From Trypanosoma brucei (lineage: Eukaryota), in the NCBI GenBank assembly GCA_000002445.1, contig CP000066.1:480001-544000 (forward strand): a DNA stretch of 64,000 nucleotides. The letters run 5' to 3'. The notes beneath the pieces are model-generated. The model did no database searches. It saw only the letters and a program-made list of their open reading frames with translations, and had not been told where the DNA came from. Below are positions 1 to 20,959 of this stretch, in pieces. Made by a program: the position numbers and the translations under genes. Within the stretch, counting starts at the first letter, position 1; every line of letters starts with the position of its first letter.

Positions 1-260
1 CAAAAGGAGCAATCCCAAGCTCACGATGTCCCATGACACCTTTAATCCGCGCTCCTTTACACCTTATTATTATTATTGTTATTTTACGCTTCCCCTTCCT
101 TTCCCACGTCCCTCCAACGCACACACACACAACCATCCAATCTTAATATCGTTTACATAACAAAAAAGTGTACTCAAAGAAAGGAAAGGAAAACCAGGCA
201 CCACTTTTTCCCTCTCCCACTTCCCAATTAGTCACTAAGATGTTCACCAAACACACATCA

Positions 261-2048
261 CTAAGAACTCACATCAAGATTAAAGAACGGATGGCAAAGT
301 GCACTGGCTGCCGTCATACGTTGCCTCGGGTCTCGCTCGAAACAGCGCATAACAAAATCATTTAACACTGAAGGCCATGCCTCCGGATGCCGCAATGCTG
401 GGGACAAAAAATTCTCCTCCATGGCCATAAACGTAGCGGCTGGATCCCACACTGCGTACTCAAGCCCATTAAGCATTCTCAAAAGGACACAACCTACACT
501 CCACATATCGCAGGAGGCGGCGAAAGTTGCAACACGGTTGGCTTCATATCTGGGTTCAGCACTGGCAGATGCCCAATACACCTCAGGCGCCATTGTACTG
601 AAGTCGCCAAGTTGGGAAATGGGCGATCCGAGACGCTGCGCGAGGCCAAGGTCAGTCAGCACAACACGCGGAAAGGAAAAATCCTCCACCAAAACCTGTT
701 TAAGTGTTAGGGGTGATGAAAGAAGGCTCTCAGCGCCTGCATCACCAAATGGCCATGGTTTGGATAGGAGGATATTCTCCGCCTTCACATCAAGATGGCA
801 CAAGTTGCACACATTGTTGAGAAAGTAAAGCGCATGACATATGCTCCACGCTACGTGCTGGACCTCTCGCACAGTAAACAGCGTCCGAGGCGTAGCGCCA
901 GTACCTCCCGTGCCATCATGGGAAGGGAAGGGGCACCCCGTTGCGGATGAAACTTTATAAATCTCGCTGCGCTTATTAATACAGTCGCCTAGAGAAGTGG
1001 GATAGAGTTCTAGCGGGAAAAGCAACGCATCCCGCTTGATGCTGTACATTACGCTGCCAACGAGCTTTACTACAAAAAGTGAGCCCGTCAGAAAGGTACG
1101 CAGGACATGCAGACGCCCTTCTAACTCCGTTATGTTGTTCTTGATATGTGAAAGCTCGCTCTCATCGCCCTCCGTGCATTCCTCCGATACTCCTGCTGCT
1201 TGTCGTTTAAGCTGCTCCAACTCTCTTTCCACAGTCCGCACATCAGTTTCAAGTCGATGAGTTGCACTAGTTACCGTCTGAAGGGCACAACTTTCATCAA
1301 GAGTCCACTTTCCCTGAACGCGACTAATCTTAATGGCAACACGGCGGGCCTTAATGGATGCGCCCGTGGGAGTCCCATTCCATAGCACACAGTCGGAACC
1401 CTGATTACGACTTGTAGCAGTGCTATCAGCGCATACGCCATCCACTTCCACAACTGACTTCCGTTTGGCAGGGACGACAATCCCATAGTTTCCGCGACCT
1501 ATGTAACCTGTGAAGCTGCTGCCACACGTAGACGACAGTTGCCTCAGACTGAAACACGATTCAAGCTCTTGGTCACTTTTTAAAAATTCATACGGTGAAC
1601 TTTCCTCTTCGGGGAACATTTGCAACAATTGCGACGGAGTCGGTTCGATCTCTCGCTGGAGATCAAATTTACTGTCGTCGTCAGTTCTCGGACCGCTGCT
1701 TCCCCCCAAAGGAGCCTCGTCTCCTCCTTCATTTGTAACGGCTTCACCTCTTTTATATTCGTCACGGCCCCTCGCCATCGTATCAAATGGCAAAACGGCA
1801 CTACACGTACGGCTAAGGCCAAACTGTGCCATTGGTGGGGCACTCCACGTATGAATGAACTCCATGACATTTTTTGGACGGTTAATAACAATGTCGACGA
1901 GGAGGTTGTTAACAATATTCTGCGCACCGCTCTGATGCATCCAGCGGTCAATAGCCAAAGTGGGTTCTTTCTTATTTGCTTCATTGCTGGGATCGTTGCA
2001 GCCGTCCCCCGTAATTTTGTCCATCCCGGTAATTAAGTTCCCCCTCAT
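261..2048 (-). CDS. Atypical protein kinase (595 aa). It has an RIIa/DPY-30-like N-terminal motif and large insertions between the Gly-loop, beta3 Lys and the catalytic loop.
   Basis: Translation contains a Gly-loop IGRGNYGIV, beta3 VAIK, catalytic loop HLDVKAENILL (HRD replaced by HLD), DLG in place of DFG, APE (TMAPEVYW) and DMWSVGC. A roughly 100-aa coiled-coil insert replaces the helix-C region. The N-terminal stretch GAQNIVNNLLVDIVINRPKNVMEFIHTW resembles the RIIa dimerisation/docking consensus. ATG checked at 2046-2048 (reverse complement). Confidence 0.85.
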   Translation of the reverse strand: MRGNLITGMDKITGDGCNDPSNEANKKEPTLAIDRWMHQSGAQNIVNNLLVDIVINRPKNVMEFIHTWSAPPMAQFGLSRTCSAVLPFDTMARGRDEYKRGEAVTNEGGDEAPLGGSSGPRTDDDSKFDLQREIEPTPSQLLQMFPEEESSPYEFLKSDQELESCFSLRQLSSTCGSSFTGYIGRGNYGIVVPAKRKSVVEVDGVCADSTATSRNQGSDCVLWNGTPTGASIKARRVAIKISRVQGKWTLDESCALQTVTSATHRLETDVRTVERELEQLKRQAAGVSEECTEGDESELSHIKNNITELEGRLHVLRTFLTGSLFVVKLVGSVMYSIKRDALLFPLELYPTSLGDCINKRSEIYKVSSATGCPFPSHDGTGGTGATPRTLFTVREVQHVAWSICHALYFLNNVCNLCHLDVKAENILLSKPWPFGDAGAESLLSSPLTLKQVLVEDFSFPRVVLTDLGLAQRLGSPISQLGDFSTMAPEVYWASASAEPRYEANRVATFAASCDMWSVGCVLLRMLNGLEYAVWDPAATFMAMEENFLSPALRHPEAWPSVLNDFVMRCFERDPRQRMTAASALCHPFFNLDVSS

Positions 2049-3929
2049 TGCTCTCTCCTTGCCATGTGACTTCCCAATCTTTCCCTTTCTGCAGTTCTTC
2101 AGCAGATTTATTTATTCCTTTCCTTTTCCCCTTTTTGCTGTTGTTATAACCTACTATTCTTTTTTTTTTCTTTTATGACCTTAACCGTACCCTCTCTTCA
2201 CTTCCCCTGGAATTAGTTTTACGTACATATAAACAAACACACACACACACAATATATACATATATGTATATGTGTGGTAAGACGTTCAGTGGCGGAGCAG
2301 AAAGAAAAAACAATAGGGGAAAGAGAGCAGAGGTGAATTTAAAAATATACATGCCAATGTGAGATGTTAATCATTCACAAAGATTCATTAAGTAATAAAA
2401 AAAAAAGAAAAGATACTAAGAACGGAGCAGGAAAAGATTCTCGCGGCAGTAAATGACGCAGAAACTGTAAACACGAGGCGCAACCCGAGTGCAGCACTTC
2501 ATTCAACATCAAAAAAGTAAATAAACAAAGGTAATAAAAAGAAGTGCGTTTATTTGGCAGTGGCTTGCAACAATGCGGAACGAACATGAAAAAAAAAAAA
2601 AGGGGGCGCACATGAACAACAACAGTAATAATAATACCAAAAATAATGATCGTAAAAAGCGGAAGTTTTTCTTTTCGTTTGCACGGCCCTTAACCATTCA
2701 TACCCCTCCAAATTGCGCGCCACCCGTTTGTTCAAAAGAAAAAAAGGAGGTAATGGGAAACGGAGGCGGACAAAAGGGAAATAAACCAACAGCAGCGATT
2801 TATGCCCCACCAAATTTTTCAAAAAAAAAAACATAATTTTTTTTGGCTGAAAAAAAAAACATGAAAACATAATGTGAGCCATGTAAAGACATCCTTACGT
2901 GTGTTTGTGTGGGCATCGATGCGCGGTAGAGATGCCATCAACAAAATATAACAAAAAAAGGAGAAAAAAACAGAAAAGTTAATTTGTTGAATTCCCCTTA
3001 TGTGTTTTATCATTTTCACCACGCAGAGTCAGGTCGCAGTAGCGTTCTTTCCTTGCGTCACGCTTCAAAAACCACCTCCACACACATATTTTATGCCATA
3101 TGCACTCCATACGACTATTATTTTCTTTTTTTTTCCCTCACCCCTCCCTCTTTTCCTACACCATTATATTTTTGCGTGTCACTCCTTCATTCAAAAACCC
3201 CTCCCAAACCCGGTCCTAATCACACTTCCCTAACATCATCTTAACTTATTCAAGTGAGTGTGCTGGTGTGTATTTGTATGTGTGTCTATATAACTTTCAT
3301 CACTTGCTTGAAGCTCATCTACAACTTTGTTTTTGTATGTGTATATAATTGTATAAATACTTCGGGCCCCGTTTCACTTGACACACAGGAATTTTTTTTT
3401 CTTTCATTTGCATCGTGCATTCTCCCTATGCTTAATTGTTGTTCGCAATCCTTCATTTATAATTTTGCTCTTTTTTTCTTTTTTTGAACATTCCGTCAAG
3501 ATTCCAGTCCCACTGTCAAGTTCAAAAACAATCACTCTATATGGTCTCGTGTGATACGGATCCCATTCTCAGCGGAATAACAAACATAAATATATGTATT
3601 TTAAAATATATATATATATATAAAGGAAAAAGGGTGATGTGCTCTATGGGTTCCGGTGAAGAATGAGGAAAACCGCTGCCCACACGCATTTCACTGCATA
3701 AGAGCATGAGCACCAATGATATCTATACAAATATATATGTATATATAGATAGATAGATAAACAGATAAATAGATATAGGAAGATATCTCAGATATAAATG
3801 TATCTTTTATTTATAAACGTGTGCGTGCAGGTATATAGTGAAACTACAGGAAAAAAAAACAAAAAAGGTATCGGGGAAAAATAGAGTACACCGTATCATG
3901 GATTAAATCGTTACCAGTTGTCGGTGTGG

Positions 3930-6245
3930 TTATTTTTTACCCCCGTGCCCTTTTGTGGAACTGTCGCTGCCGGAGTGGTTATTGGCATTAACTGATGAAC
4001 CGCTACCACCAGGCGCACTGCTCCCAGACGAGGCGGAGGAATTTGAAGCTGTTGAGTGCGCACCGGCGTGCTGCGAAGATTGTCCACCGTTTCTTCCACT
4101 GGACGAGCGCTTCTTCAACATGCGCTCCGCCTCACGATCCGCCTTTTGTTTATTCCACGCTTCCTTTTTCTCTCGTAACATTTGCCGCACCCCTCGCCCC
4201 TCCAGCACGCGAGGTGTTGGTGGTGATGGAAAGATAACACTCCGACAGTTGCGGGTGCCACAACTGCATGCAAATGGCGGCATACGTTCGTCACATAACG
4301 TGGCATAATCCACGGTTAACTCCTCACCACTATTAATTGTCCGCTTAGAGACAAGCGTCAGCGTCCGGCCCTGCAAGAAATGCATATTGGGTTCACAAGA
4401 GTGACGAATTGCAACTGCCTGATGAAGGCGATCACCACGTAAAATCACACACCCCACCACTGGATCCTCTTCCCCAAGTTTATATACAGCCTGAGCAATA
4501 ACGGGAACAGTGTGGGCCGCATCACTGAAGAGCGCCTTGCCGGGCCGTACGGTTCGGCTCGCTTTACTCGAAAAATTTCCACGAGAATCGTGACTGATGA
4601 AGTACCATGGCCGCCTTGCCTTCTGCTCACGGACTGCGCGGTTCACTGCATTGTCCACAAAGCGGTCGTGATCCCATGATTTATCGCCCACCACCATCAA
4701 GTCCGCGAAGTCACCGCCATCCTTCTCGCTGTACCACATCCCACAGTTTGGGTTGATTTCCAAAAAGTATACATCACCTTTGGGGTCTATACGAAAGTCA
4801 ACACGGCCATATCCGACCCCGTTCATAATGTGTTGGAAAGCATTCCGGGCCATGTCAATAATCCGTGGGTAGGCCGGGTCATTATGAGGAAGAAAACTGC
4901 ATGCCTCATCGTTGCATTCCATGGACCACTTCTTGTCAAAATAGGCAAAGTCATCTTCATTTTGCAAAAAGTTAAACATTAAAGGCCTGAACACCTTGAC
5001 GCCATGCGGACTCCCGCTGTCGGCACATGCGAGAACGGTGCCCTCACGTCCTCGAATAAACTCCTCCACCAGAGCGTGATTGAACTCTTTCAGAAATGTT
5101 CCAACCTTCACTTTCAACTCGTCCAGAGTGTCACAACGGTTATCCTTGTTAATGCCAACAGAAGCGTAACCGGAAAGATGTTTCACGATGACAGGGAACC
5201 GCAGATGACGACATTTCTTCGCCAAACCTTCCGTTTTATCCAAAAGCACAAAGTTAGGTGTATTCACACCGGCCCCGGCAACAAGCACTTTCATATCAAT
5301 CTTGCTGGGTTCAAAACTGCGCGAGTCTGTGCCCGTAAATGCTGCGTTGTGCTCCTCCAGTGCCTCTAATACGTCGATACCAGCACGCTTCTCATCTTTA
5401 CCACCGTCACAAAGGTTAAAGAAAACGTCGAAGTTGTTTGAGGTTACCAATTCTCGCACCTGACGATAGGCATCATCTTTACGCACAGCAACTTCCGTGA
5501 AGGAGTACCTGTTCTTGTCCTTCCGCACCCTGTGAGCGGGGCTGCAGTGGTAATTGTCCATTTCCGCAGTGACAGAATTGGTCCCTTCGTAGCTGCTGTT
5601 GAGGACACATACGCGCAATTGCTTCTTTACGCTCGCCCTTCTCCTGCCTAGAGTTTGAGATACCACCATCCCAGTCGCCGATTTTGTGCAGTGGGAACCA
5701 TTAGCGGATGAAGAGCCCGTTGACATTGCTGTTGCTGTGTTCGTGGTCGATGCACCGGATCTATTCACCACTGACTTGGAAGAGGAAGCTTTTACTTTCT
5801 TCAGCCCAATCACATCTTCTTTTCCTTTTCTTGCTGACCTTCCCCGATTCGATCCCTGCCCTATTTCCACTGCTGTAGTCATCCCTGAGCTTTTACCTGA
5901 CGCACCACCGCCGTTACTCGTACCTGATGCACTCAACAGGGCTGCACTCTTCGTGCCGGGGTTAATGCCATTACCTCCAGGATGAGCGGATGTACCGACG
6001 GCGGCGGGAGGCACGGCGCCTCCAACTGTCAAACAACTTGAAGTACCACCACTTTTACTGCTCACAGAAGAGGCAGCACCACGGGATGGGAGAATAATAG
6101 TTGTGTTGGATGACTTCCATCGCAGGGTGTGAACAGTCACGCAACTCCACACAGCCACTGTTGGGGTTTTGGGTATTAATACATCTGCAAGGGGACATCG
6201 TAAGACTGAAGCCACACCAAAACGTCGAATTGCTATTCTGTACAT
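3930..6245 (-). CDS. ATP-grasp domain + SET-domain methyltransferase fusion protein (771 aa), with an Arg-rich N-terminal presequence-like segment and a Ser/Gly/Lys-rich C-terminal tail.
   Basis: ATP-grasp motifs: PVIVKHLSGYASVGI, LVEEFIRGREGTV, GYGRVDFRIDPKGDVYFLEINPNCGM. SET C-terminal motifs: RHSCEPN and GEELTVDY, followed by post-SET CSCGTRNC. ATG checked at 6243-6245 (reverse complement). Confidence 0.85.
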   Translation of the reverse strand: MYRIAIRRFGVASVLRCPLADVLIPKTPTVAVWSCVTVHTLRWKSSNTTIILPSRGAASSVSSKSGGTSSCLTVGGAVPPAAVGTSAHPGGNGINPGTKSAALLSASGTSNGGGASGKSSGMTTAVEIGQGSNRGRSARKGKEDVIGLKKVKASSSKSVVNRSGASTTNTATAMSTGSSSANGSHCTKSATGMVVSQTLGRRRASVKKQLRVCVLNSSYEGTNSVTAEMDNYHCSPAHRVRKDKNRYSFTEVAVRKDDAYRQVRELVTSNNFDVFFNLCDGGKDEKRAGIDVLEALEEHNAAFTGTDSRSFEPSKIDMKVLVAGAGVNTPNFVLLDKTEGLAKKCRHLRFPVIVKHLSGYASVGINKDNRCDTLDELKVKVGTFLKEFNHALVEEFIRGREGTVLACADSGSPHGVKVFRPLMFNFLQNEDDFAYFDKKWSMECNDEACSFLPHNDPAYPRIIDMARNAFQHIMNGVGYGRVDFRIDPKGDVYFLEINPNCGMWYSEKDGGDFADLMVVGDKSWDHDRFVDNAVNRAVREQKARRPWYFISHDSRGNFSSKASRTVRPGKALFSDAAHTVPVIAQAVYKLGEEDPVVGCVILRGDRLHQAVAIRHSCEPNMHFLQGRTLTLVSKRTINSGEELTVDYATLCDERMPPFACSCGTRNCRSVIFPSPPTPRVLEGRGVRQMLREKKEAWNKQKADREAERMLKKRSSSGRNGGQSSQHAGAHSTASNSSASSGSSAPGGSGSSVNANNHSGSDSSTKGHGGKK

Positions 6246-6289
6246 CCCTTTTCTTATACTCCTTCACGAAAGGGAATAAGCCGTTACGA

Positions 6290-6365
6290 AAGACAGGGAG
6301 GAGAGCGGAGGAAGTAAAGTGCACACAAAGGAAGGAGGAAAAAAAACAGTGCCAGTTTCATTATC
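6290..6365 (-). promoter_or_regulatory. Polypyrimidine tract (minus strand) 50-120 nt upstream of the ATP-grasp/SET gene ATG.
   Basis: Plus strand gggaggagagcggaggaagtaaagtgcacacaaaggaaggaggaaaaaaaacag. Confidence 0.35.
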
Positions 6366-7183
6366 AGGGAAGAACAACCTCCACTCAACAAATACACGCC
6401 AATGTTGCGAACACTTCACACACCAGCATCAACCACACTAAAACACGCGTCCAAACGCATGGCACGGCGACCTATATATATATATATATATAATAGATGT
6501 AGACGTCACTGGGATGGGAAAGGTAGAGAGTTGAAGTAGGGAACCGCATGGCACTTATTGTGTTAGACTCTAATAATAAAGTATTTTACGTGTCCCTTTA
6601 CCTTCATCCTCTTATTGACAGTGAGACCAAGTATTCATCGAATTCTCAGAAATCACGGCAAGAATACACATGCACAAATATGTGTATGCGAATAACAAAG
6701 ACACTTCTTTCCACTTTACCGTAAATAGGTTTCGCTCGCCCATGACACTGGAGTGAAAAAAAAAAGGTGACTTGAGAGAGAGGTTAAAGAAAAAAAAACG
6801 TATAAAAAATATATTAATAACAAAAATAATAACTAAACAAATAAGCATATAAACCAAGAAGAAAAGAAACAACAGCTGCCCTCGATGCTCTCGGCCAAAT
6901 GAAGGATCATGTCTTCCACCGAATAATCTCTTTTTCCTCACACTTCCCTTCACACATACACACACCCACACGCATACAAGAGCAGATTCTGTAGACACCC
7001 AACAAGCATATTGCTGCAACAAAACAAACATGAGTACAGAAGAAAAACGGTAGTAACAAAAAAAACAATGGAGTATGGAACAGGAAAATTAAAGGAAGGC
7101 TGTAAACGCATTTGCTTAGGAATAATAACGATGACCATCAGTACAATGTCACCTCTTAAGAGGTGTAGAAATGAATAGAGAAA

Positions 7184-8053
7184 TCACAAGTCACCGAAGA
7201 AACTCGCGTCCTCTAAAAGTTTTCCAACGCGCACGTGGCCCATGAGAGGCGGTCCATCAGGGTCTTCCAAAGAAGCTCGATCTCCGCGCATCCATGTGAA
7301 TTTGAGCACCCTTGAAAAGTTTCTCCCCTCCCAGTTCTTGTTATCGAAGTTTTGTTCAGCGATGTAAACAAGTGAGGGCTGTCGACGCTCCTTCTTCAGT
7401 TCGCGAAGTGCCGCCTCTCCACCAGCAGCAGATACGTCATCTTCCACCTTCACAACCACGGCAACGTGACCGCGTGGAAAGTATGCCTTATAGTCCGAGT
7501 CCCATACCACAACATCGCCCACGAGCGGCGTGTGCCGCTTGCGCCTCTTCGTTGTCGTGACTTCCACCTTATTTTCGAAGTTAATCCGCTCGTATAGACG
7601 GTGCATCCCGCTTGAACCAAAAAACTTGAGGTTCTCCCAGTACAAATCGTGTCTGCTTCCACCGAAATAGACGAAAATTCCTCGGGTGTGTAAAAGGTAG
7701 CGAGCAACAAACTCATCCGCGGTCCAACACAACCCAGTTGGTGCTCGCTTCCACTCGGACCCATACGGCATTTTCTTCATCACTTCATGTGGATAACCAA
7801 TTGTAGTGTAGGCGTATGTCTCTGACAGCCAGTGGCGGTGGCAGTTGCTCATAGAAGGGACGTCTGAACTATAACCTACAACAGAGTCCATGGGAGCGTT
7901 GCAATGCTCAAGTGGGTTGAAATCCATATGCATCCCATGTCTCTTTGATTTCTGCGTGGATCCCCCACCGAGGAGAACGTAGACGAATAGAAAAAGCAGG
8001 AGAGTAGCCGGCACAGCGAGCTGAAACTTCTGTTTTCGGTTTAGAGACACCAT
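7184..8053 (-). CDS. Membrane-anchored CHAP-domain (glutathionylspermidine-amidase-like) cysteine amidase/peptidase, about 290 aa from the first ATG.
   Basis: N-terminal hydrophobic anchor LAVPATLLLFLFVYVLLGG. Catalytic Cys context GLCWTADEFVARYLLH matches the Gsp-amidase/trypanothione-synthetase amidase pattern C..EF..R.LL. His motif PRGHVAVVV. The ORF track extends to 8278 through a tat-repeat, translated as YYYY. The first ATG (MVSLNRK) was checked at 8051-8053 (reverse complement). Confidence 0.7.
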   Translation of the reverse strand: MVSLNRKQKFQLAVPATLLLFLFVYVLLGGGSTQKSKRHGMHMDFNPLEHCNAPMDSVVGYSSDVPSMSNCHRHWLSETYAYTTIGYPHEVMKKMPYGSEWKRAPTGLCWTADEFVARYLLHTRGIFVYFGGSRHDLYWENLKFFGSSGMHRLYERINFENKVEVTTTKRRKRHTPLVGDVVVWDSDYKAYFPRGHVAVVVKVEDDVSAAGGEAALRELKKERRQPSLVYIAEQNFDNKNWEGRNFSRVLKFTWMRGDRASLEDPDGPPLMGHVRVGKLLEDASFFGDL

Positions 8054-8403
8054 TTGTGGCGTGATTTGTTGATTCGCGTCCTTTACAAAATAATAATAAT
8101 AACAATACCAATGCCAATGCCAATAAGGTTTTATAGCCCTCCCGTGAAAGGATGGAAGAAAGATAGAAAGAAGAGCATTGACAGAAACGTGCCAACAGGA
8201 AAGAACCCGATCATCGGACACACAGAATGTACCGCTGAAGCGATATAGTAGGTAAAAAGTGCGAGACACAAATGGCAAAAAAAATTTTCAAAGTTCGTAT
8301 GATGGGAAAAGGTGTAAAACATGTGAAATCCTCCCCACATTCATCTGATTATTGCGCCGTACATCAGACCAGTAGACTGCCGCCGATTTTCTCCACGCAC
8401 CAA

Positions 8404-10431
8404 TCAGTAGACACAAACACAGTTACATCCCCTGGGGCAACGGTGCACACTCTGGTCATTCCACCACGCCATAATATGCGACATGTGCCCCCCATGACCG
8501 CAGTAAATACAACGCAAAATGAGGCAGCCATTCCTCTTGCTTGAAGGAGGCGGTGTGGCGCCTCCTTCAGCTCCACCACTCCCATGTCCTTGCCCGCCCG
8601 GTAATAGCGAGAGACCACAAATAGCACATGTGTCTGTTGGTAGTAAAGCTGGGCTTAGGTCCTTGTCCTTCGCTCCAACAGTGCCAGGGCCTCCGCTACC
8701 GCTATCACCATACGCATTAATTGGTGAACTCCTGCTGGCCATGTGTAGTTGTTGATTTAGGGTAGCATTACAATAGGCGGTCTCAATAGCGCTCATGACA
8801 AGTTCTACCTCACGGAACTTTACAGGCTGATCCATGATAAAGAATACATGAGAAACAACAGACACACAGCGATAGCACTCTACCGGATGAATCAGATGCT
8901 TTGCAATGTCTGGAAACGCCGGTTCCTCACTTAATATGGAGGGAAGTACAACACAACAGACGACTACACCCGCCCAAAAGGGTTGCCGCTGTGCCTGCAT
9001 CGTCTCCACGGATTGAGCAAGAGCTGGTATGAGGAGTTTTCGAGCACAGAGCAGAGGTGTCTGCACTACCAGCGCTCCCTTCACGATATGGGACAACGTG
9101 CGAAACGTCAGCGATACCCCGCGAAGCGCTTTGGCGTTACGTGTTATATGAGCGTTCTTGCATAAGGCGGAATGGGGTTTATCGTCATACAGGCACACAT
9201 CATTCATCGTATATTTTTTCGTATGCAGTATATTTTCCGGTGCTAATAGTGAAGGAAGTAGCATCCTCCTTTCTTTACTTACCCCCTTTGGCACCACAGA
9301 TAGGTCAAGTGCAGAATTAGTCAAAAAAATCCGCCCCTGGACCGATTGGCTATCGGGTCCGTGCGAAAAAACACCAGCCACACCTGTCAAACCAATCGTG
9401 TTTCCATCGATACCGTCCCCACATTCTGTATTACCACACCCGCGGTTGAAAAGCGGTGAAGACGACGAAAAGCCACCTGAAGACGTCGCATCGGGATGTG
9501 GTCTTCCCTTTGCAAGAGATGCAGATGCAGAGCGATCATCAATTCCTTTTGCTTCCGATCGGTCTGAGCGTCCCCATGAAAGGATTCCGCCGTTCGGCAT
9601 GAATGCGGCGGCAAACTGACGCTTCGGCCTCAGAACCATATTACTCCCCATGAAGTCTTCAAAATGCCCAACAAAATCATCCCGCAGTGACCAACCATTA
9701 CTTTCCTCGTATAATGCCGTCGTGCTTCCCGAGTGCACGCAGTCACGCTCAAGCACTAAGCAACTCTCGTCCAGTTCCAAGGCCCCCCACCAAGTGCAGA
9801 GAAAAGAGAAACCAGACAGAAACAATGACCCAGTCGCCTGCTCAACACCACGTCCCACTGCCCCAGCGTCCATGGATACCTCTGTCGACGAACCCGAGGC
9901 ATCCACAGGCCTCAGTGATGTGAGTCGCGAGCAGCCATACCGCAATTTGCCGTAGTAGTCCGCAGCGTTCTCAACAGTATCATTGCAACCCCCATTGTGT
10001 GACAGTTTTGGCGCAGTGAGTTTCGATATAGCTTCCTCTAAGACAAACGACTGCAACCCACAGCATCTGTTGGCACCACCCCCGCTATCATGCTCGCTGC
10101 CTTGTACGCAACCGTCCTTGGCGTAGCGCCAGCTGCAGGGAGCCGCCGGATACGAAGGTGGGAAAACAGCGACCCACTCCGCTACAACCATGAACCCTGA
10201 AACAGAATTCTTGGGTTCTACAGCCCCTTGGAATTCGCGCTGAAGCCGCACAACCACCATACAAGTCCCGTCTACTTCTGAAACCGGGTCGCACACTATT
10301 ACGGTAGGCGCTCCTCTCCCCGACGGCAGTTTCGCTGGCGTGGCCTGAATACCTACGCACGGTGCGAAGTAAACGCTAGCACGTTTTCTTGCCTCCTCAA
10401 CCTCCGGCGATACAACAACTAAAGGTCCCAT
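8404..10431 (-). CDS. Protein of 675 aa with a C-terminal GATOR2/SEA-complex-type RING/zinc-binding domain (WDR24/WDR59/MIOS-like).
   Basis: C-terminus reads CAICGLSLL...CLILRCIYCGHGGHMSHIMAWWNDQSVHRCPRGCNCVCVY. It matches the C-x2-C ... C-x2-C-GHGGH-x2-H-x3-W ... CP-x-GC-x-C arrangement characteristic of Sea2/3/4, WDR24, WDR59 and MIOS. The rest of the protein is Gly/Ser-rich with no other obvious domain. ATG checked at 10429-10431 (reverse complement). Confidence 0.7.
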   Translation of the reverse strand: MGPLVVVSPEVEEARKRASVYFAPCVGIQATPAKLPSGRGAPTVIVCDPVSEVDGTCMVVVRLQREFQGAVEPKNSVSGFMVVAEWVAVFPPSYPAAPCSWRYAKDGCVQGSEHDSGGGANRCCGLQSFVLEEAISKLTAPKLSHNGGCNDTVENAADYYGKLRYGCSRLTSLRPVDASGSSTEVSMDAGAVGRGVEQATGSLFLSGFSFLCTWWGALELDESCLVLERDCVHSGSTTALYEESNGWSLRDDFVGHFEDFMGSNMVLRPKRQFAAAFMPNGGILSWGRSDRSEAKGIDDRSASASLAKGRPHPDATSSGGFSSSSPLFNRGCGNTECGDGIDGNTIGLTGVAGVFSHGPDSQSVQGRIFLTNSALDLSVVPKGVSKERRMLLPSLLAPENILHTKKYTMNDVCLYDDKPHSALCKNAHITRNAKALRGVSLTFRTLSHIVKGALVVQTPLLCARKLLIPALAQSVETMQAQRQPFWAGVVVCCVVLPSILSEEPAFPDIAKHLIHPVECYRCVSVVSHVFFIMDQPVKFREVELVMSAIETAYCNATLNQQLHMASRSSPINAYGDSGSGGPGTVGAKDKDLSPALLPTDTCAICGLSLLPGGQGHGSGGAEGGATPPPSSKRNGCLILRCIYCGHGGHMSHIMAWWNDQSVHRCPRGCNCVCVY

Positions 10432-10952
10432 GATCCCTCCTATTTCTACTTTTGCGCGGTTTCCTTTCTTTTTTCAAGCCCTGATGTAAAGGCTCTACCG
10501 TGTGGCAGTTCCCTCTCCCTCCGCTACAATGGTTTTCCCTTGTGCTCGCGCGTGCGCACCAAAACTTATAATGGGGCTCTTGCGTGAATTCAGGTGCAGT
10601 TCTTAACACAAGGGGGGAAACAATAATAAAACTAGAGGTTTCTGTCATAGTAGTACAGCCCGCAAGTAAACATGCAGTTGACGAACGACAACCTACCTCC
10701 AGCAGCATAATAAAGAAGTAAATGCGGATGCAAGAATATAATGATGTACGAACGTAATGCGGAAGTTACCTAAACGCCAAATCACAAGGAGGAGAACTTC
10801 ATATGTGCAGAAAGACCCACCCAACCCTCATTAATTCAATACCTCTACATATATTACCTTATCCTGCACCATATTGCTGCAGTCATAATACTTCCACCAT
10901 TCCTCCATATATATGAATAGACATACAGGTACGCGTGCAGACGAGTATACCA

Positions 10953-11807
10953 CTAGAATTCTTCCATTTGTGGCTCAGGACCATATGACAGTTTCTCTCC
11001 AAACACAGATTTTAGGCGCCACTCGTCTCGCACCTGGTCATCAACCTTTGGTTCCACGAACTTCCGGAAAAACCAGGCACGGCGAACGGACACTTGCTTC
11101 CAGTAGTTGTGCAGTCGTGCTTGCGCTTTGCAGTAAAACTTCACAACTGACTCCTCCAACACCTGAGCCATCGCGGGACCGGCGGAAGAATAATACATCT
11201 CTTCTGCCTCCAGAGCCGTAACAGGTTGCCCCTCCCGCTTGCGACGCGTGACCTCCCGCTCAACACCGGAGTACAACTCCTCCCGGAACTCGGCGGGAGG
11301 CTTAAATTCCAAATCCGTCCAATGACCCCCACTAAAGCCTTTAACCTGAGGGTAGCGGACAAGATTCCTGGTAAGTTGGGGTGTGGCATCCTTACTCACT
11401 TCGTAGAACTTAAGATTCGGATAGCGGTCAGCGCTCTGGTGGCAAAGAAATTCAAACGTTTTGTCGAGTGCATTACACGCTGTGCAGTTCTCCTGATGAT
11501 ACCGCACAACCATAACGTCATCCGAGTGAGAAAAGTAGTGCAACTTCTCCCGCATCTCCTCTACCGAATGAATTGGCTTCACACACCTGGTTGGAAATTT
11601 CATCCAAATTGGATTCACTGGCAACTCGTTGTTTGCGCCCAAACCGCTACGGATACCTGCGCTGTTCATCATCAGTGCCTTCATTTTGTGCGAAGCCGAT
11701 TGGTAAAGCTCGAGCTTCTCCCGCCGTCGCTTGATCCCAGCAACGACTTCAGACCGGCCGCCCGGTACCTCCGGCTCGCTCCATTCTTCTTTTCGGGTTT
11801 CGGCCAT
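10953..11807 (-). CDS. Thioredoxin-fold protein with a CTAC (CxxC) motif (284 aa).
   Basis: VVVRYHQENCTACNALDKTFEFLCH ... YPNLKFYEV follows the thioredoxin pattern (W)CxxC-K-x-l-x-P-x-fe-x-la ... yp-x-vkF. It carries a basic/acidic C-terminal extension. ATG checked at 11805-11807 (reverse complement). Confidence 0.7.
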   Translation of the reverse strand: MAETRKEEWSEPEVPGGRSEVVAGIKRRREKLELYQSASHKMKALMMNSAGIRSGLGANNELPVNPIWMKFPTRCVKPIHSVEEMREKLHYFSHSDDVMVVRYHQENCTACNALDKTFEFLCHQSADRYPNLKFYEVSKDATPQLTRNLVRYPQVKGFSGGHWTDLEFKPPAEFREELYSGVEREVTRRKREGQPVTALEAEEMYYSSAGPAMAQVLEESVVKFYCKAQARLHNYWKQVSVRRAWFFRKFVEPKVDDQVRDEWRLKSVFGEKLSYGPEPQMEEF

Positions 11808-12066
11808 TACACCTAAGTGTTTTATGGCAGTACCCGACCAAACAGACGTTACAGTTTCAACGAAAATAACAGTACAGTGACGACAAATTGTGTTGTGGTA
11901 AAGAGACGATAAAACCTTGCAGAAGCACTACGAAAGTTAAGCGATAACGACTAAATAACTAATGGAGCGGAACCACAATAGCAAAAACACGAGCCAGTTG
12001 TGGTATCTCCGATATTCCTATCAAAACAAACTCTTCAGCTTCGACTGCCCCCACCGGAGCTACGCA

Positions 12067-12091
12067 AATATATATATATATATATATATAT
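12067..12091. repeat. (TA)n microsatellite.
   Basis: atatatatatatatatatatatat seen directly. Similar (TA)n tracts occur at 3603-3620, 6471-6491, 16984-17008, 19018-19036, 33443-33461, 37197-37216, 59673-59698 (followed by (ATTT)n 59699-59728) and 60192-60235. Confidence 0.9.
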
Positions 12092-12792
12092 GCGTGCGGG
12101 TGCTCGTGTTTATGTATGTATGTATATATGTGTATTAATTTAAAAATAAAGAAATGGCTTTTAGGGTTACTACTATTTTCCCCCCTTTGAAAGTCGGAAG
12201 AATGTCCTCCACCCTATTATCTTTACAACTGGAACCCCCTGGTACGAACCCCACTAGATTTCGTGGGGCGAACCGTGTCTTCGTTCGAAGTGAAATGATG
12301 TGTAACGAGAAAAAGGGGGGAAAGCGGAAAAAATTAGATAATAGTTTAGAGGAATTGTACACACGAGTTAGGCGGGGAGATAGTGTGCACAAACACTCAC
12401 TCTCTCTCCCTCTCTCTCACACACACACATACATACACGCATTGACCGGTACAGCACATGCCAATTTGCGTAAGATTTGTGGTGACAAAAAAAAATAAAT
12501 AAATACATGAGCAGCAAATTGACCTCGTGATTTTTGCACACACTCAAACATCTCTACAGCGGAACATACCCGCCCATGTTCTATTCTCACCTTTTTTTTT
12601 GTGTTGCTCATCTCATATTTCATTTCGCTCCAGCTTCTCAAGTCACAAAAAAAAAGGTCCCCGCAACTCGATCTCCATCATGTTTGTTTACTTCCCCCCC
12701 CCACACACACACACATCGTCAGCGGCACATTCCGAAGCCTCGTTATGCTTCCGGTGTTGCCCTCAGCGGTGAGGCATAAAGTAGTAAAAATG

Positions 12793-12816
12793 GGAGGAGG
12801 AGGAGGAGGAGGAGGA
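12793..12816. repeat. (GGA)8 trinucleotide repeat in an intergenic region.
   Basis: ggaggaggaggaggaggaggagga seen directly. Confidence 0.9.
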
Positions 12817-13733
12817 CAGTAATGAAAATGGGGAACAGAAGCGGCGTGATATCATATCCTCCCACCACCCCTGGCACTTGTTTCTCCCGACATTAATCGG
12901 CACAACTCAAATCTTCTCGTCTCCTTTGCCACACAACTTCTAAGAGTTCGCGTTACTTTGTTATCCGGTCCCACCCAACCTTACAAATTGCTTTCCCTCT
13001 CAGCGCACCACACCAACATGTAACGAACATCATATACATCAACCATGAAAAAATAAAGGATGTACAGAGGGGAAGGTGAAGCAGGGGGGGGTGAACAAGA
13101 ATTACAAAGAAAAAAACAAATGAGGGTAAAAGAGCAAAAGCCCTATAAAGGAAGAAAAGGGAACATTACTTAACAACGCGGAAAGGAATTGCATCAGCAG
13201 CGGAAATAGAACACGATGCGGAATAAAATTGGTCTCGTAGGAAATGAAAGCGTGAGCATGAGATGGGCATAATTCTATTCTTTTTTCACTTTGTTTTTAA
13301 TTCTCCTTCCGCCTTTTGGTGTACCATTTTTGTTTTTTCTACGAGCACAAGTATAGGATGAACAGAGAGTTAACGCACATAAAAGAATCGGCAAACAATA
13401 AGAAACAAAAAATGATACGCACAAAAGCGAGAATTGACACATCGGCAGCTCCCACTGTCACTTTCTGCAGTACGATTCTCAGACGCAGCGCAAGGTCTTC
13501 TTTTTTCTCCCCTTTCCTCCTTCTCAAGTCCCTACCGGGTCCACAGGTGGCGGCGCGGGCATCATCAAAAACTGCAACTTCCATCCACTTCAGCCTTCAA
13601 CGTTACGGCTGATGTATATTAAAGATGCCTCCGCCCACTCCCTACGTACAACGAACAAAAAACGAATAAAATGGTAAATGTTACATGCTTTTACAGCTTT
13701 TTCTTTGTGTTTCCTTCAACATTCTTCATTCCC

Positions 13734-16337
13734 TTATGCTTCATCTTCTATCTCATCTTCACCTGTGCCAGACGCACGGGCAACATCATTCCCACTAAGT
13801 TCTTCGCTCCCAATAGAGGAAGATGATGAAGAAGCGTTCTTTCGACCTTTGGATACGCTAGAGCTTGACCGAGACGTCCTTTTACTGCTCGATTCTTTGG
13901 ACGATGCACCATCCGCTGAGTCCTTCGCCGCGTCGGCACCGGACGCCTCATCCACAGCCTCGCTCTTTACCGCATCAGAATCTAGCTCATCTACATCCTG
14001 ATCGTTAACATGTTCGTCCTCTACAACCTGTTGCACAGCCTCACCCTTTTCAGATGATGGCGATCTCTCCAGTTCGTCGCCGTACTCGAACTTATCCCCC
14101 TCCAGTTTAGCGGATGATTCGGATTTCTTCGATGATGAGCGGGACTGCTCCGACTCGGTATCTTTCTTTTCAGATGTCTGGGACTTGTCAAGCTCCTCAG
14201 TGTATTCATCCTTCTGTTCATCATCCTCAGGCTTCTTCGATGATGAGCGGGACCGCTCCGACTCGGTATCTTTCTGATCCTCAGCCTCGGTATCTTTCTT
14301 TTCAGATGTCTGGGACTTGTCAAGCTCCTCAGTGTATTCATCCTTCTGTTCATCATCCTCAGGCTTCTTCGATGATGAGCGGGACCGCTCCGACTCGGTA
14401 TCTTTCTGATCCTCAGCCTCGGTATCTTTCTTTTCAGATGTCTGGGACTTGTCAAGCTCCTCAGTGTATTCATCCTTCTGTTCATCATCCTCAGGCTTCT
14501 TCGATGATGAGCGGGACTGCTCCGACTCGGTATCTTTCTTTTCAGATGTCTGGGACTTGTCAAGCTCCTCAGTGTATTCATCCTTCTGTTCATCATCCTC
14601 AGGCTTCTTCGATGATGAGCGGGACCGCTCCGACTCGGTATCTTTCTGATCCTCAGCCTCGGTATCTTTCTTTTCAGATGTCTGGGACTTGTCAAGCTCC
14701 TCAGTGTATTCATCCTTCTGTTCATCATCCTCAGGCTTCTTCGATGATGAGCGGGACCGCTCCGACTCGGTATCTTTCTGATCCTCAGCCTCGGTATCTT
14801 TCTTTTCAGATGTCTGGGACTTGTCAAGCTCCTCAGTGTATTCATCCTTCTGTTCATCATCCTCAGGCTTCTTCGATGATGAGCGGGACCGCTCCGACTC
14901 GGTATCTTTCTGATCCTCAGTGTCAGGATCCTTCTTTCCGGACTCGGAGGCTTCAAATTCGTCACCATAATCATTCTTGGTTGTATCAGCAGTTGGTTCA
15001 TCATCCGTCTTGTCTGCATCATCCTTCGTCAGTTCCTCAGGCTTCTTCGATGATGAGCGGGACCGCTCCGACTCGGTATCTTTCTGATCCTCAGTGTCAG
15101 GATCCTTCTTTCCGGACTCGGAGGCTTCAAATTCGTCACCATAATCATTCTTGGTTGTATCAGCAGTCGGTTCATCATCCGTCTTCTCTCGTCCTTCCCT
15201 GCCGGATCTCTCAGACTTCCTTGACGATGGTCGAGAACGGTCAGATTGAGTGTCCTTCCCATCTTCAGCATCGGTGGTGTCCTGTTGCATCGCTTTTTGA
15301 CTGGCGCTTGCAGATGCAGAGGACGGGCGAGCAGCAGATGCAGGACGGCTATTGCCACCATCCTTCAAAATTTCCTTGCTCGTCGACTGCTCTGTCGAGG
15401 CTGGTTGCGGAGATGCTGTAGAAGGTCTGCTTTCCCTCTTAGCTTCGCTGGGTTGCGCCACACTTGATGTAGAACCCTTCCCAGTTGCAGAGTCTTCCGC
15501 GACTGATGATGAAATTGGGGCCTCGTCTTCGGTCACAGCACCGTGCTTACTGCTTTCAGTTAACCCTCCACCGGACTTCCGGCCGCCAACGGGAGAAGCG
15601 GCTCCTTTGCCCTTCTGTGGTGTGGCGGGTCGGGAAGAGTCCGAATTTAGAGTTTCTCTAATGGTCTTGAGTAATATATTCTTGGGAGGGGACGAAGTTT
15701 TGCCCTTTCCCTGACTGCTGCAGGCACCCGGTCGGCCACCTCGTTGGCCCACTGTATCAGGACGCTTTTGTTTGGGTGGCTTAGGAACTGTCGCCACGGC
15801 GCGTTTCTTGGATCCAGTAGCTCTACTCGACACAGTACGTTGACGCTTCTTCGCAACTTCTTTTCTACCCGATGTAGTCTCTTTCGGGCTGGTCAACTCC
15901 TCGGCCTCAACACGCCTCTGCGTAGCGAATCCCGTCCGGCATGCGAGTTCCTCCAACTCCCTCTGGCGCCGTTCCTCAAATCGCCGGCGAGCCACTTCAC
16001 GCCGATGTTGCTCCAACCGCTTCTGCCGCCTCATCTCTTCCCGGCGCTCGGCCGTTTCACGGATCAACATCTCCCTTCGGGCCCAGTAAGGTGCAAGGTA
16101 TGGATCTTCCAAATCGTTATACGGAGGAAGACTTTGGTCTTGTAGTGGCCCAAGTGTGAATTCTGTTTCTAGGAAGCGCTGAGCGGACTGTGGGCGTAGA
16201 TTACTGTTTACTGTAGATCTTGGTGTAACAACACACAAAGCATTGGTAGCAGCCGGACCATGTGACGCGTAGACGCCCACTCGAGCTGCCTCACCGCCGC
16301 GAGATGAACTCTCCAGTGGGGGGAGCGACTTCGACAT
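13734..16337 (-). CDS. Highly acidic Ser/Glu/Asp/Lys-rich tandem-repeat protein (867 aa) with an RR/EE coiled-coil C-terminal region.
   Basis: One continuous ORF runs from unique N-terminal sequence through six 44/36-aa repeats (KKPEDDEQKDEYTEELDKSQTSEKKDTEAEDQKDTESERSRSSS) and two 58-aa repeats into a unique C-terminal region (RREEMRRQKRLEQHRREVARRRFEERRQRELEEL). ATG checked at 16335-16337 (reverse complement). Confidence 0.8.
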   Translation of the reverse strand: MSKSLPPLESSSRGGEAARVGVYASHGPAATNALCVVTPRSTVNSNLRPQSAQRFLETEFTLGPLQDQSLPPYNDLEDPYLAPYWARREMLIRETAERREEMRRQKRLEQHRREVARRRFEERRQRELEELACRTGFATQRRVEAEELTSPKETTSGRKEVAKKRQRTVSSRATGSKKRAVATVPKPPKQKRPDTVGQRGGRPGACSSQGKGKTSSPPKNILLKTIRETLNSDSSRPATPQKGKGAASPVGGRKSGGGLTESSKHGAVTEDEAPISSSVAEDSATGKGSTSSVAQPSEAKRESRPSTASPQPASTEQSTSKEILKDGGNSRPASAARPSSASASASQKAMQQDTTDAEDGKDTQSDRSRPSSRKSERSGREGREKTDDEPTADTTKNDYGDEFEASESGKKDPDTEDQKDTESERSRSSSKKPEELTKDDADKTDDEPTADTTKNDYGDEFEASESGKKDPDTEDQKDTESERSRSSSKKPEDDEQKDEYTEELDKSQTSEKKDTEAEDQKDTESERSRSSSKKPEDDEQKDEYTEELDKSQTSEKKDTEAEDQKDTESERSRSSSKKPEDDEQKDEYTEELDKSQTSEKKDTESEQSRSSSKKPEDDEQKDEYTEELDKSQTSEKKDTEAEDQKDTESERSRSSSKKPEDDEQKDEYTEELDKSQTSEKKDTEAEDQKDTESERSRSSSKKPEDDEQKDEYTEELDKSQTSEKKDTESEQSRSSSKKSESSAKLEGDKFEYGDELERSPSSEKGEAVQQVVEDEHVNDQDVDELDSDAVKSEAVDEASGADAAKDSADGASSKESSSKRTSRSSSSVSKGRKNASSSSSSIGSEELSGNDVARASGTGEDEIEDEA
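14107..14905. repeat. Tandem array of six in-frame coding repeats (four of 132 nt, two of 108 nt) plus a partial unit.
   Basis: The motif tctttcttttcagatgtctgggacttgtcaagctcctcag... recurs at 14161, 14293, 14425, 14533, 14665 and 14797. That gives periods of 132, 132, 108, 132 and 132 nt, with near-perfect identity between units. Confidence 0.9.
14855..15200. repeat. Two tandem copies of a 174-nt (58-aa) coding repeat adjacent to the 132-nt array.
   Basis: ggtatctttctgatcctcagtgtcaggatccttctttccggactcggaggcttcaaattcgtcaccataatcattcttggttgtatcagcag occurs at 14901 and again at 15075. Confidence 0.8.
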
Positions 16338-19300: not shown

Positions 19301-20959
19301 TCCCTCATTAACGCAATCTTTAATGAAGGCAGGAGAAAAAAAAATGGAAACACCATACAACAACAACATCGATGATGACAATAAGAGGAAATAAACTGAA
19401 AGCAATAAAAGAAAATAAATCGGAAACAATTTGAAAGATATATGAAATATAAAAAACATAAATGAGACCCAACCACCATCCCCCTCTCCCACCCCAAAAA
19501 AAAAAAAGAAAAAAGAAAAAAAAAGGATCAAAGCAATCATAAAACTGCAGCAGAGCCTCCTCATCTCTCCTCCTTCCTCTACTCTTCAGCCACCTCACCC
19601 ACAACAATGAAGAACTGCATAATTTAACGACAAAATAATAAATAGTCAAAAAAAAAAAATAGAACTGATGAAAAGAGGGAAAAAAAGACAAAAAAAAGAG
19701 AAAGAAAAAGAAAGAGAGGAAATGAGGGAAGGGGATTTATTTAAAAAAAAAAAAAGACGGCCGAATAGAGAGAGCACTGGTTCAGTAAAAGTGCACTCTG
19801 CAACGACTCGGGTGATTAAACAAACAAACAAACAAAAGAAAGAAAAAGGAAACCAAAAATTGAGAGAAAAAAAAGGGAGAAACCCTGTAGATATGAATAC
19901 ATGTGTGTACTTTATTTATTTGTATATATTTGTATTCATTTAAACACATGGTGATATCAGGCGATAAACCCCACACACATACACACGTACACACATAATT
20001 GGAAGAACACTCCCCCTTCTATCAAGCTAAACAGTTAAATGAATGTGTTGGCCATTGTGATGTTTCAGCTTCGGGGAAAGGAAGCAGAACCAGACCAGAA
20101 GATGGGGAAGGAAGAAAAAAAAAAGCACAGAAAGAAATGGCAGCAACACCTCCACTGTACATTTACATAATAATATTCTTCCAATACTCATGAATGTACG
20201 AATACGGAAACATACACACAAACACGAAGAAAATAATAACAAAAAAAAAGCAAACAAAACAGTGTGCAGTGGTCGAACATGATCCACTGGAAAGAGAAAG
20301 AAAGAGAGAAATATGGGGGGGGGGATGCCCTTCATTACCCACTTCGAGGTGATTACATTATCACAATCACTCTTCCTTGTCTTACCAGGTTCGCAACCAC
20401 CGACAAAAACAAAACAAAACAAAACAAATCGCGGCAGGTCCACATCACTTTCCGAACACCCTCAAGTATTCCTGATATTCTCTCACAAATCTTCTTCACA
20501 CATTGCTTAGTTTTCCGGACAATTTGGTTAATATTATCTTCAATATAACTATAACTCCTCTTTTTTGTCATCTTCTCTTTAAACCAACGTAGCGATATGG
20601 AGAAGCCGAATCATAAGCGCCAATCGCTCACATGAACAGCAAACAGTATGGGAGTTTACCGGCACTTTTGTACCTTACATCGGAAGTATAACTTGCATCT
20701 CATTGACATCAACCCCACCCCCACCCTTTTCTACACATGGTAACGGCGCCGCAAAGATGCTGAACAAACAAACAAACAAACGGGCACTAACATGTACAAG
20801 CTCGCATACATACACGTACACATACACATACACATACACAAGCGCACACAAACACGTGAACACGTGAACACATGTCAAAACGTGCCGAGGAACCGAAGCA
20901 TATCCCTTCCCCATATCCATCTCCTGAAGGGTCGGGAAACTTATGATTGCTTTCATGTA

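Follow-up and report, generated by a model that had tools for sequence, protein, structure and literature searches.

A stretch of 64,000 nucleotides of the Trypanosoma brucei genome (assembly GCA_000002445.1, contig CP000066.1, positions 480,001 to 544,000 of the forward strand; hereafter the window) was analysed with respect to SET30, the protein encoded on the minus strand at 3930..6245 of the window. The results showed that SET30 joins a ligase of the D-alanine-D-alanine ligase (Ddl) type to a SET methyltransferase domain, that both halves keep their cofactor and catalytic residues as judged from aligned sequences, and that relatives of the same architecture are abundant in bacteria, where their only robust genomic association is with small SET genes resembling that of BurB, a methyltransferase of free methionine. 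We tentatively read the ligase-SET family as bifunctional small-molecule enzymes, which would ligate amino-acid-like substrates and also methylate them.

Identity of the SET30 gene

The open reading frame (ORF) runs unbroken from ATG to stop and encodes 771 aa. Its translation is 100% identical to XP_843780.1/Q57ZC5 of T. brucei brucei TREU927; the identical 771-aa protein is also annotated in T. equiperdum (SCU72131.1), and the T. b. gambiense counterpart has 771 aa and is at least 90% identical. The 1.65-Mb contig carrying the gene is presumably chromosome 3. Supplemental Table S1 of Staneva et al. (2021) lists Q57ZC5 as SET30, Tb927.3.1860 (PMC8559703), and the SET30 tagging primer in that study encodes MYRIAIRR, which is the start of the ORF analysed here. 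The same source places SET30 in RNA interference target sequencing (RIT-seq) class 1-1-1-0, with loss of fitness only in the bloodstream-to-procyclic differentiation experiment, and reports that SET30 tagged N-terminally with yellow fluorescent protein was undetectable in bloodstream forms (PMC8559703). TbSETD, a mitochondrial SET protein described in a preprint, was considered as a possible name for this gene and rejected, as TbSETD is Tb927.9.11350 and has 310 aa.

The initial annotation of the window called the architecture unusual. However, databases already annotate both domains, the Leishmania ortholog being named 'ATP-grasp domain/D-ala D-ala ligase C-terminus/SET domain containing protein'; SET30 is included in the survey of Staneva et al., and for its candidates that paper mentions a 'D-ala D-ala ligase' domain in the legend to a supplemental figure (PMC8559703). 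Thus, the SET30 gene and its domain architecture are already in databases and in one published catalogue; a further literature mention is in a microarray study (PMC2504296). The bacterial spread, the BurB-like partners and the alternative fusion orders presented below are undescribed as far as the searchable literature shows.

The ligase half

A Pfam search of the 771-aa translation returned the two matches expected in the initial annotation, both above their curated cut-offs. Dala_Dala_lig_C (PF07478) matched aa 321-503 (E = 1.9e-15; 57.4 bits against a cut-off of 24), six other ATP-grasp models matching the same region more weakly, and SET (PF00856) matched aa 612-647 (E = 1.1e-7; 32.6 bits against a cut-off of 22.4). 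When solved structures were searched by sequence, aa 259-503 retrieved D-Ala-D-Ala ligases and aa 609-678 retrieved BurB, MLL and other SET proteins; the family profile matched solved D-Ala-D-Ala ligases at E = 1e-21 and SET proteins at E = 4e-19 to 1e-13. The ATP-grasp fold proposed in the initial annotation is therefore confirmed by profile searches, and the motifs it quoted (LVEEFIRGREG, RHSCEPN, EELTVDY and CSCGTRNC among them) are all present where it placed them. Both of its domains stood but their limits had to be redrawn, with the ligase extending over about aa 208-535 instead of 270-470 and the SET region over about aa 545-675 instead of 560-690.

The full three-subdomain Ddl fold is present in SET30. 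In comparisons with known ATP-grasp enzymes, the SET30 ligase gave figures of 25-29 (up to 297 aligned residues) for D-Ala-D-Ala ligases and VanA, 19-21 for LysX, ArgX and RimK, 15-20 for L-amino-acid ligases, 13-16 for ligases of ribosomally synthesized and post-translationally modified peptides (RiPPs), and 11-14 for tubulin tyrosine ligase (TTL) and the TTL-like enzymes (TTLLs). The SET30 ligase is much closer to the small-molecule Ddl enzymes than to any protein-modifying ATP-grasp. Residues were mapped by alignment with Escherichia coli DdlB together with an alignment of the family profile to Ddl. DdlB K97, K144, E180 and K215 correspond to SET30 K319, K355, E394/E395 and K439, and DdlB R255, D257, E270 and N272 correspond to R481, D483, E496 and N498; these eight ATP/Mg2+ and phosphoryl-transfer positions are at least 93% conserved across 109 family members. 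An omega-loop of Ddl length is conserved in the ligase family, and the profile alignment sets the family's FkhfdlKW against FYDYDAKY of Ddl, with K and W invariant in the family. The NLCDG motif of the N-terminal subdomain has invariant N, C and D and a nearly invariant G in 44 diverse members, and is at least 93% conserved in the 109.

Despite this likeness, SET30 scored only 72 bits against TIGR01205 (cut-off 245.65) and 71 bits against NF002378 (cut-off 243), two curated Ddl models, and the bacterial and ligase-only relatives likewise scored about 70-80 bits against Ddl cut-offs of at least 243. The Ddl triad that binds D-Ala, Glu15-Ser150-Tyr216, is not kept: the Tyr216 position is an invariant Trp, Glu15 is unconserved and Ser150 is Ala or Ser. 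Because of these low scores, the Trp at Tyr216, the unconserved Glu15 and the family's own NxCDG motif, the ligase is regarded as an unnamed Ddl-like subfamily, whose reaction very probably proceeds through an acyl phosphate and with a substrate that is not D-Ala. Ddl and VanA have the ATP-grasp fold and very probably the chemistry in common with the SET30 ligase at an identity of only 17-20%, but they differ from it in the Tyr216 position, in E15 and H63 (both unconserved in the family) and in the family-specific motif, and the SET30 ligase is fused to SET and is found in organisms or compartments without peptidoglycan. Glutathionylspermidine/trypanothione enzymes and the L-amino-acid ligases belong to other ATP-grasp subfamilies and are not known to carry a methyltransferase domain; both groups, the former including the glutathionylspermidine/trypanothione synthetase-amidase, serve only as functional analogies.

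Only seven clade-specific fixed differences, all conservative, were found in the ligase of the SET30 clade. A concerted change of its active site was therefore rejected, and this ligase probably catalyses the same kind of reaction as in the bacterial relatives.

The SET half

The C-terminal half of SET30 has a SET fold, and its best solved match, by profile and by structure, is BurB, just ahead of MLL1. BurB consists of 172 aa and methylates free L-methionine on its sulfur (PMC12542666); BurB and MSMT are the L-methionine S-methyltransferases of dimethylsulfoniopropionate and malleicyprol biosynthesis. BurB and SET30 share the segment from the conserved Tyr to the CxC, DYASTEDVLMRQFECHCGAPNC in BurB and DYATLCDERMPPFACSCGTRNC in SET30, with SET30 Y647 aligning with BurB Y124 (PMC12542666). 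However, BurB is a stand-alone protein whose partners are a decarboxylase, an aminotransferase and a dehydrogenase, with no ATP-grasp ligase, and the N-terminal half of its SET domain is dissimilar; the likeness is one of sequence and structure and does not imply methionine as the SET30 substrate. The MLL/Set1-type histone H3K4 methyltransferases resemble SET30 in the HSCxPN motif, in the tyrosine of ELTxDY and in the CxCx4C post-SET zinc motif, with an identity of 22-28% across some 90 residues, but SET30 is without the N-SET, WIN and chromatin-reader modules, has a short SET insert and RHS for NHS, and is mitochondrial instead of nuclear.

Within the SET30 clade the SET catalytic motifs are invariant, and the post-SET cysteines C660, C662 and C667 are invariant throughout the family. 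All members of the SET30 clade (P0001-P0037 in our numbering of family members) carry RHSC[ED]PN and other clades mostly NHSC, so that the canonical Asn is replaced by Arg; Asn620 is retained. BurB, an active enzyme (PMC12542666), has Leu where the canonical Asn sits in the alignment. The SET30 clade is also without about 20 residues of an aromatic-rich SET insert (F..YAWP...W..P..W) that is present in the short paralogs described below, in bacteria and in the virus. An AlphaFold2 model of aa 205-690 had a confidence (pLDDT) of 91 and a predicted template modelling score (pTM) of 0.88, the latter agreeing with active sites that are held in fixed positions relative to each other. The sequence and structure of the SET domain fit methylation of protein lysines and BurB-type methylation of small molecules equally well.

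Distribution and evolution of the ligase-SET fusion

Both Pfam domains were found on one polypeptide in T. cruzi, T. vivax, T. theileri, T. grayi, Leishmania and Leptomonas, and also in Porcisia, Strigomonas and Trypanoplasma. The best BLASTP alignments of the trypanosomatid orthologs of the long clade, which span the catalytic core, are 64-84% identical. That the fusion is an artefact, namely an assembly join, a frameshift or read-through of two genes, is next to impossible and was excluded, as the ORF is uninterrupted and the fused protein recurs, identical or as an ortholog, in independent genomes as far apart as those of kinetoplastids and bacteria; the single fused ORF described in the initial annotation is thereby upheld. 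The suggestion that the fusion might be confined to kinetoplastids was not. Outside this group, it is found in Plasmodiophora and Spongospora (plasmodiophorids), the moss Ceratodon, the green alga Sanguina, the giant virus Fadolivirus and many bacteria, including Gemmatimonadota, Chloroflexota, Acidobacteriota, Rhodothermales, Chlorobium (among them the cultured C. ferrooxidans DSM 13031), Myxococcota, Methylococcales and Spirochaetes. At least 557 genomes encode a relative in a scan that took one genome per prokaryotic species, and a profile search returned 745 clusters (50% identity) at E <= 1e-30, many of them complete ligase-only proteins of about 320-345 aa. A phage collection searched for relatives yielded ordinary ddlB genes only.

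Most trypanosomatids and Perkinsela carry a second, shorter paralog of about 500 aa without the N-terminal extension; carriers include T. vivax, T. theileri, T. rangeli, T. grayi, T. cruzi marinkellei and Leishmania. No entry from the T. brucei group or T. congolense was found among the best 120 matches listed, and T. brucei may have lost the short paralog, leaving SET30 as its sole family member. In a neighbour-joining tree, the SET30 clade together with an intermediate metagenomic clade is sister to the kinetoplastid short paralogs. This topology points to an old duplication, which would have been followed by remodelling of the SET substrate region in the SET30 clade.

Other arrangements of the same parts were also found. 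The order is reversed, SET before ligase, in P0163 and P0173; P0126 has three SET stretches and a ligase, and P0183 a ligase, a SET domain and a second ATP-grasp; P0233 and P0246 contain tandem ligases; and in P0205 and P0230 the ligase is fused to a clostripain-family (C11) peptidase. The fusion of ligase and SET in both orders is Rosetta-stone evidence that the two are functionally coupled in one process, and the set of architectures looks like a modular ligate-and-methylate toolkit. In P0113, the precomputed Pfam record misses the SET half despite the motifs DHSCDPS and CKCGSREC. A complete ligase-SET module forms the very C-terminal part (residues 5631-6177) of the 6220-aa protein P0128.

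Bacterial gene neighbourhoods

All ORFs within 3.5 kb of the fusion gene were clustered for 80 loci. The result showed that the only robust association is with a small SET gene, which adjoins the fusion gene in 18 of the 80 loci, usually encodes about 170 aa, lies on the same strand in all but one locus, and mostly abuts or overlaps the fusion gene. These 18 loci come from Chlorobiaceae, Gammaproteobacteria including Methylococcales, Caldilineales, Rhodothermales, Spirochaetes, Methylomirabilis and unclassified bacteria, and span at least six phylum-level lineages. As SET genes are rare in bacteria, this adjacency (22%) is far above chance by our own estimate, which is not a formal test. The partner proteins are BurB-like (E = 2.4e-13) and belong to a large, mostly bacterial family, of which no kinetoplastid homolog was found among the best 120 matches listed. 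The amoeba Balamuthia mandrillaris has a 301-aa homolog of the partner SET proteins (P0262), named 'Histone-lysine N-methyltransferase setd1a' in its source, probably a mis-assignment.

Of the 18 loci with an adjacent small SET gene, 11 also contain an ATP-binding cassette (ABC) exporter. In Chlorobium, a 172-aa SET protein, the Ddl-SET fusion, an ABC exporter (ABC_membrane plus ABC_tran) and a 120-aa SET protein are encoded in this order on one strand, and in C. ferrooxidans the cluster is flanked by genes for an arylamine N-acetyltransferase and a class-I methyltransferase. Loci of Methylococcales and other Gammaproteobacteria have the first three of the Chlorobium genes without the second SET gene, and the Methylococcales locus has a transposase gene and a clostripain-family gene nearby. 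On the metagenome contig of P0113, the fusion gene is followed by a separate SET gene of 184 aa that overlaps its stop codon. The C. ferrooxidans cluster is the most tractable system for finding the product, the organism being cultured.

Look-ups of single bacterial loci showed no conserved neighbourhood. Two other neighbour clusters were discarded as general associations. The 'ABC' cluster does not consist of exporters throughout, since at least four of its 17 loci carry UvrA (Gemmatimonadota synteny), and three further loci have long or atypical ABC-type ORFs; the 'S9 peptidase' cluster (10 loci) is a single-linkage artefact in which PD40 repeats connect peptidases with Ser/Thr kinases. A search for RiPP precursors beside the fusion gene gave no conserved short ORF, only alternate-frame shadows, arguing against a ribosomal precursor peptide. 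SET30 was also compared with the graspetide/RiPP systems, and neither an adjacent precursor gene nor a RiPP-type ATP-grasp was found.

N-terminus and localization

The initial annotation took the Arg-rich N-terminus of SET30 for an organellar presequence, and this view gained support. Most long-clade orthologs have similarly Arg-rich and acid-free N-termini; the short paralogs have no such N-terminus and begin directly at the ligase core with acidic N-termini. In TrypTag, SET30 with an N-terminal tag was in the cytoplasm and SET30 with a C-terminal tag was in the kinetoplast and mitochondrion (PMC8559703 Suppl. Table S1), indicating that the product reaches the mitochondrion and kinetoplast when its N-terminus is free. 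A crude hydrophobic-moment test of the N-terminus gave 0.31 against a shuffle mean of 0.45, which is not significant. Taken together, the Arg-rich composition across orthologs and the TrypTag result support mitochondrial import. The N-terminal extension as a whole differs in length and sequence between orthologs, the ligase core beginning at aa 151-310 in most of them. The rigid two-enzyme core of SET30 sits between two disordered basic tails.

Proposed function and alternative explanations

Our tentative preference for a small-molecule module is based on the Ddl type of the ligase, whose members close the omega-loop over small substrates; on the nearest characterised SET enzyme, BurB, which acts on a free amino acid; on the recurrent partners, which are only BurB-like SET proteins and, in some lineages, an exporter; and on the hosts, which include hundreds of bacteria not known to have histones or tubulin. 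The initial annotation had suggested a histone or cytoskeletal tail as the common substrate of the two domains, but the presence of the fusion in bacteria, a giant virus, plasmodiophorids, a moss and an alga speaks against an ancestral enzyme acting on the tails of histones or tubulin.

In the proposed small-molecule mechanism, the ligase half would activate an amino-acid-like carboxylate as an acyl phosphate and couple it to an amine in the way known from Ddl and the L-amino-acid ligases. The SET half would use S-adenosylmethionine for N- or S-methylation of that substrate or of the product, on the model of BurB and free methionine. In bacteria, the adjoining BurB-like small SET enzymes would methylate the product further, and in some lineages the adjoining ABC exporter would export it. 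SET30 would be a divergent paralog going back to an old duplication among kinetoplastids, or among euglenozoans more widely; it would have acquired basic tails and a presequence for the mitochondrion, and its SET substrate insert would have been remodelled. Given this remodelling, its substrate is probably unlike that of the bacterial-type short paralog. More doubtful is a wider proposal, namely that the Ddl-like ligase-SET proteins and the BurB-like SET proteins form an unrecognised pathway to a methylated derivative of a dipeptide or amino acid, possibly one with a quaternary ammonium or sulfonium group, that this pathway is widespread, occurring in giant viruses, many bacterial phyla and several lineages of protists and plants, and that kinetoplastids retargeted SET30 to the mitochondrion as a metabolic enzyme.

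Several observations weigh against the small-molecule function. Most bacterial copies stand alone without informative neighbours, and the genuine exporter link is found mainly in two related lineages plus one planctomycete. No functional study of SET30 or of any ligase-SET family member was found in the searchable literature. Some relatives are fused to or lie beside a clostripain-family peptidase, pointing to possible peptide or protein substrates, and SET30 departs from the bacterial-type members precisely in the SET insert and in the change from NHS to RHS; with its basic tails and kinetoplast signal, it may have switched to a protein substrate. This leads to the alternative that SET30 is a protein-modifying enzyme, whose SET domain would methylate lysines on basic proteins associated with kinetoplast DNA, on mitoribosomal proteins or on other matrix proteins, and whose ATP-grasp would add an amino acid in the manner of RimK, LysX or TTL, or recognise the substrate. 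SET domains are overwhelmingly protein-lysine methyltransferases, MLL1 and Set1 are near the top of the structural matches, the disordered tails (net charge +22 and +8) may bind nucleic acid, and the signal of C-terminally tagged SET30 is in the kinetoplast and mitochondrion (PMC8559703). The remodelled insert and the peptidase associations fit the same explanation, and TbSETD, which is also mitochondrial but a different gene, is reported in a preprint to be essential and linked to mitoribosomal proteins. However, the ligase is far nearer to small-molecule Ddl than to protein-modifying ATP-grasps and has the conserved omega-loop, its changes in SET30 are conservative so that its chemistry is probably that of the bacterial members, and the bacterial context consists of BurB-like SET genes and an exporter without a recurrent protein partner. 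Protein modification is considered less likely than the small-molecule function, but it is the main alternative.

It is improbable that SET30 is a pseudoenzyme or scaffold. A precedent is TTLL12 of animals, the only described protein with SET-type and ATP-grasp-type parts found in the literature search; it has a SET-like N-terminal and a TTL-like C-terminal part (PMC3520985), unlike SET30 with its N-terminal ligase and C-terminal SET, its ligase is of another subfamily, and it is reported to have no activity. A search of SET30 for a TTL-type ATP-grasp domain (Pfam TTL) found none. The Arg in place of the canonical Asn, the shortened SET insert, a RIT-seq fitness loss confined to the differentiation experiment and the failure to detect N-terminally tagged SET30 in bloodstream forms would also suit an inactive protein. 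Nevertheless, the ATP/Mg residues, the SET His, Cys, Pro and Tyr and the post-SET cysteines are all invariant across the SET30 clade, the 64-84% identity of the trypanosomatid alignments spanning the core implies strong constraint, and BurB is active with Leu at the Asn position (PMC12542666). A genuine D-alanine-D-alanine ligase, the function given to some homologs by KEGG or automatic annotation (for example K01921), is still more improbable. The best sequence and structure matches are indeed Ddl enzymes and some homologs are automatically named D-alanine--D-alanine ligase, but the scores far below the curated cut-offs, the invariant Trp at Y216, the unconserved E15 position and the invariant NxCDG signature of the N-subdomain all speak against it, as does the fact that, to our knowledge, trypanosomes have no peptidoglycan.

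At present, SET30 figures in the group of putative histone or protein lysine methyltransferases, a classification that would be wrong if the tentatively favoured small-molecule reading is true. In that case, the kinetoplastid mitochondrion would hold an unrecognised metabolite made by an enzyme without a human counterpart. SET methylation of free amino acids was shown only recently, with BurB, and hundreds of proteins from bacteria, viruses and eukaryotes that join such a SET domain to a Ddl-type ligase would extend this chemistry to a two-step pathway. The family is experimentally tractable, consisting of single soluble proteins, and the Chlorobium cluster has just four genes. If SET30 is instead a protein modifier, it would act on proteins of the kinetoplast or mitochondrion in two ways, and that too would be new.

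Features and neighbouring genes in the window

The positions of the features of SET30 in the window, and of the C. ferrooxidans cluster in its own locus, are given in Table 1.

Table 1 Features of SET30 and the ligase-SET cluster of Chlorobium ferrooxidans
Feature	Residues (aa)	Position	Strand	Remarks
SET30 (Tb927.3.1860/UniProt Q57ZC5), complete ORF	1-771 plus stop	3930..6245	minus	ORF list
Presequence-like N-terminus, MYRIAIRRFGVASVLRCPLADVLIPKTPTV	1-30	6156..6245	minus	4 Arg, no acidic residue before D21
N-terminal extension, Ser/Gly/Ala/Thr-rich, low complexity	1-207	5625..6245	minus	net charge +22, no Pfam match
D-Ala-D-Ala-ligase-like ATP-grasp ligase, all three subdomains	208-535	4641..5624	minus	
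NLCDG motif of the N-terminal subdomain, in place of the Ddl 'LHG(R)G' segment	277-281	5403..5417	minus	DdlB alignment
Omega-loop motif FAYFDKKW	433-440	4926..4949	minus	K439 = DdlB K215; W440 replaces DdlB Y216
ATP/Mg2+ catalytic block, GVGYGRVDFRIDPKGDVYFLEINPNCG	476-502	4740..4820	minus	DdlB alignment, invariant columns
SET plus post-SET methyltransferase domain	545-675	4221..4613	minus	
Cofactor-site motif RHSCEPN	614-620	4386..4406	minus	His, Cys and Pro invariant
EELTVDY with conserved SET tyrosine Y647	641-647	4305..4325	minus	kept in at least 90% of members
Post-SET CSCGTRNC, CxCx4C zinc-cluster motif	660-667	4245..4268	minus	
C-terminal tail, Ser/Gly- and Lys-rich	691-771	3933..4175	minus	net charge +8, no Pfam domain
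C. ferrooxidans DSM 13031 cluster: SET, Ddl-SET, ABC exporter, SET	172, 489, 587, 120	L038 5473..9763 (Ddl-SET at 6001-7470)	same strand	

The next ORF (7184..8278, minus strand, 364 aa) encodes a CHAP amidase/peptidase domain (PF05257, E = 1.7e-6, above the cut-off) and a hydrophobic stretch, and is probably Tb927.3.1870, a 'putative membrane protein' in PMC2504296. A sequence search of the Protein Data Bank (PDB) with this neighbour gave no match. CHAP is the fold of the amidase half of glutathionylspermidine/trypanothione synthetase, but the adjacency to SET30 may mean nothing, because trypanosome polycistrons are not operons. Downstream of SET30, a 595-aa ORF (261..2048, minus strand) encodes a protein kinase domain at its C-terminus (Pkinase, E = 2e-19).

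In the first 20,000 nucleotides of the window (1..20000), seven of the eight ORFs of at least 200 aa lie on the minus strand, as would be expected of a single polycistronic transcription unit; the sole plus-strand ORF of this size (14114..15421) lies within the 867-aa ORF at 13734..16337. Stretches between ORFs are AT-rich, with a GC content of 0.37 at 2001-4000 against about 0.50 in coding stretches. The 867-aa ORF, on the minus strand, had no Pfam match and is overlapped by long ORFs of other frames at 14021..15022 (minus) and 14114..15421 (plus). The AT skew is strongly negative at 14001..16000 (-0.32) and similar at 54001-56000 (-0.28), and the skewed 13734..16337 region may be low-complexity or repetitive coding sequence.

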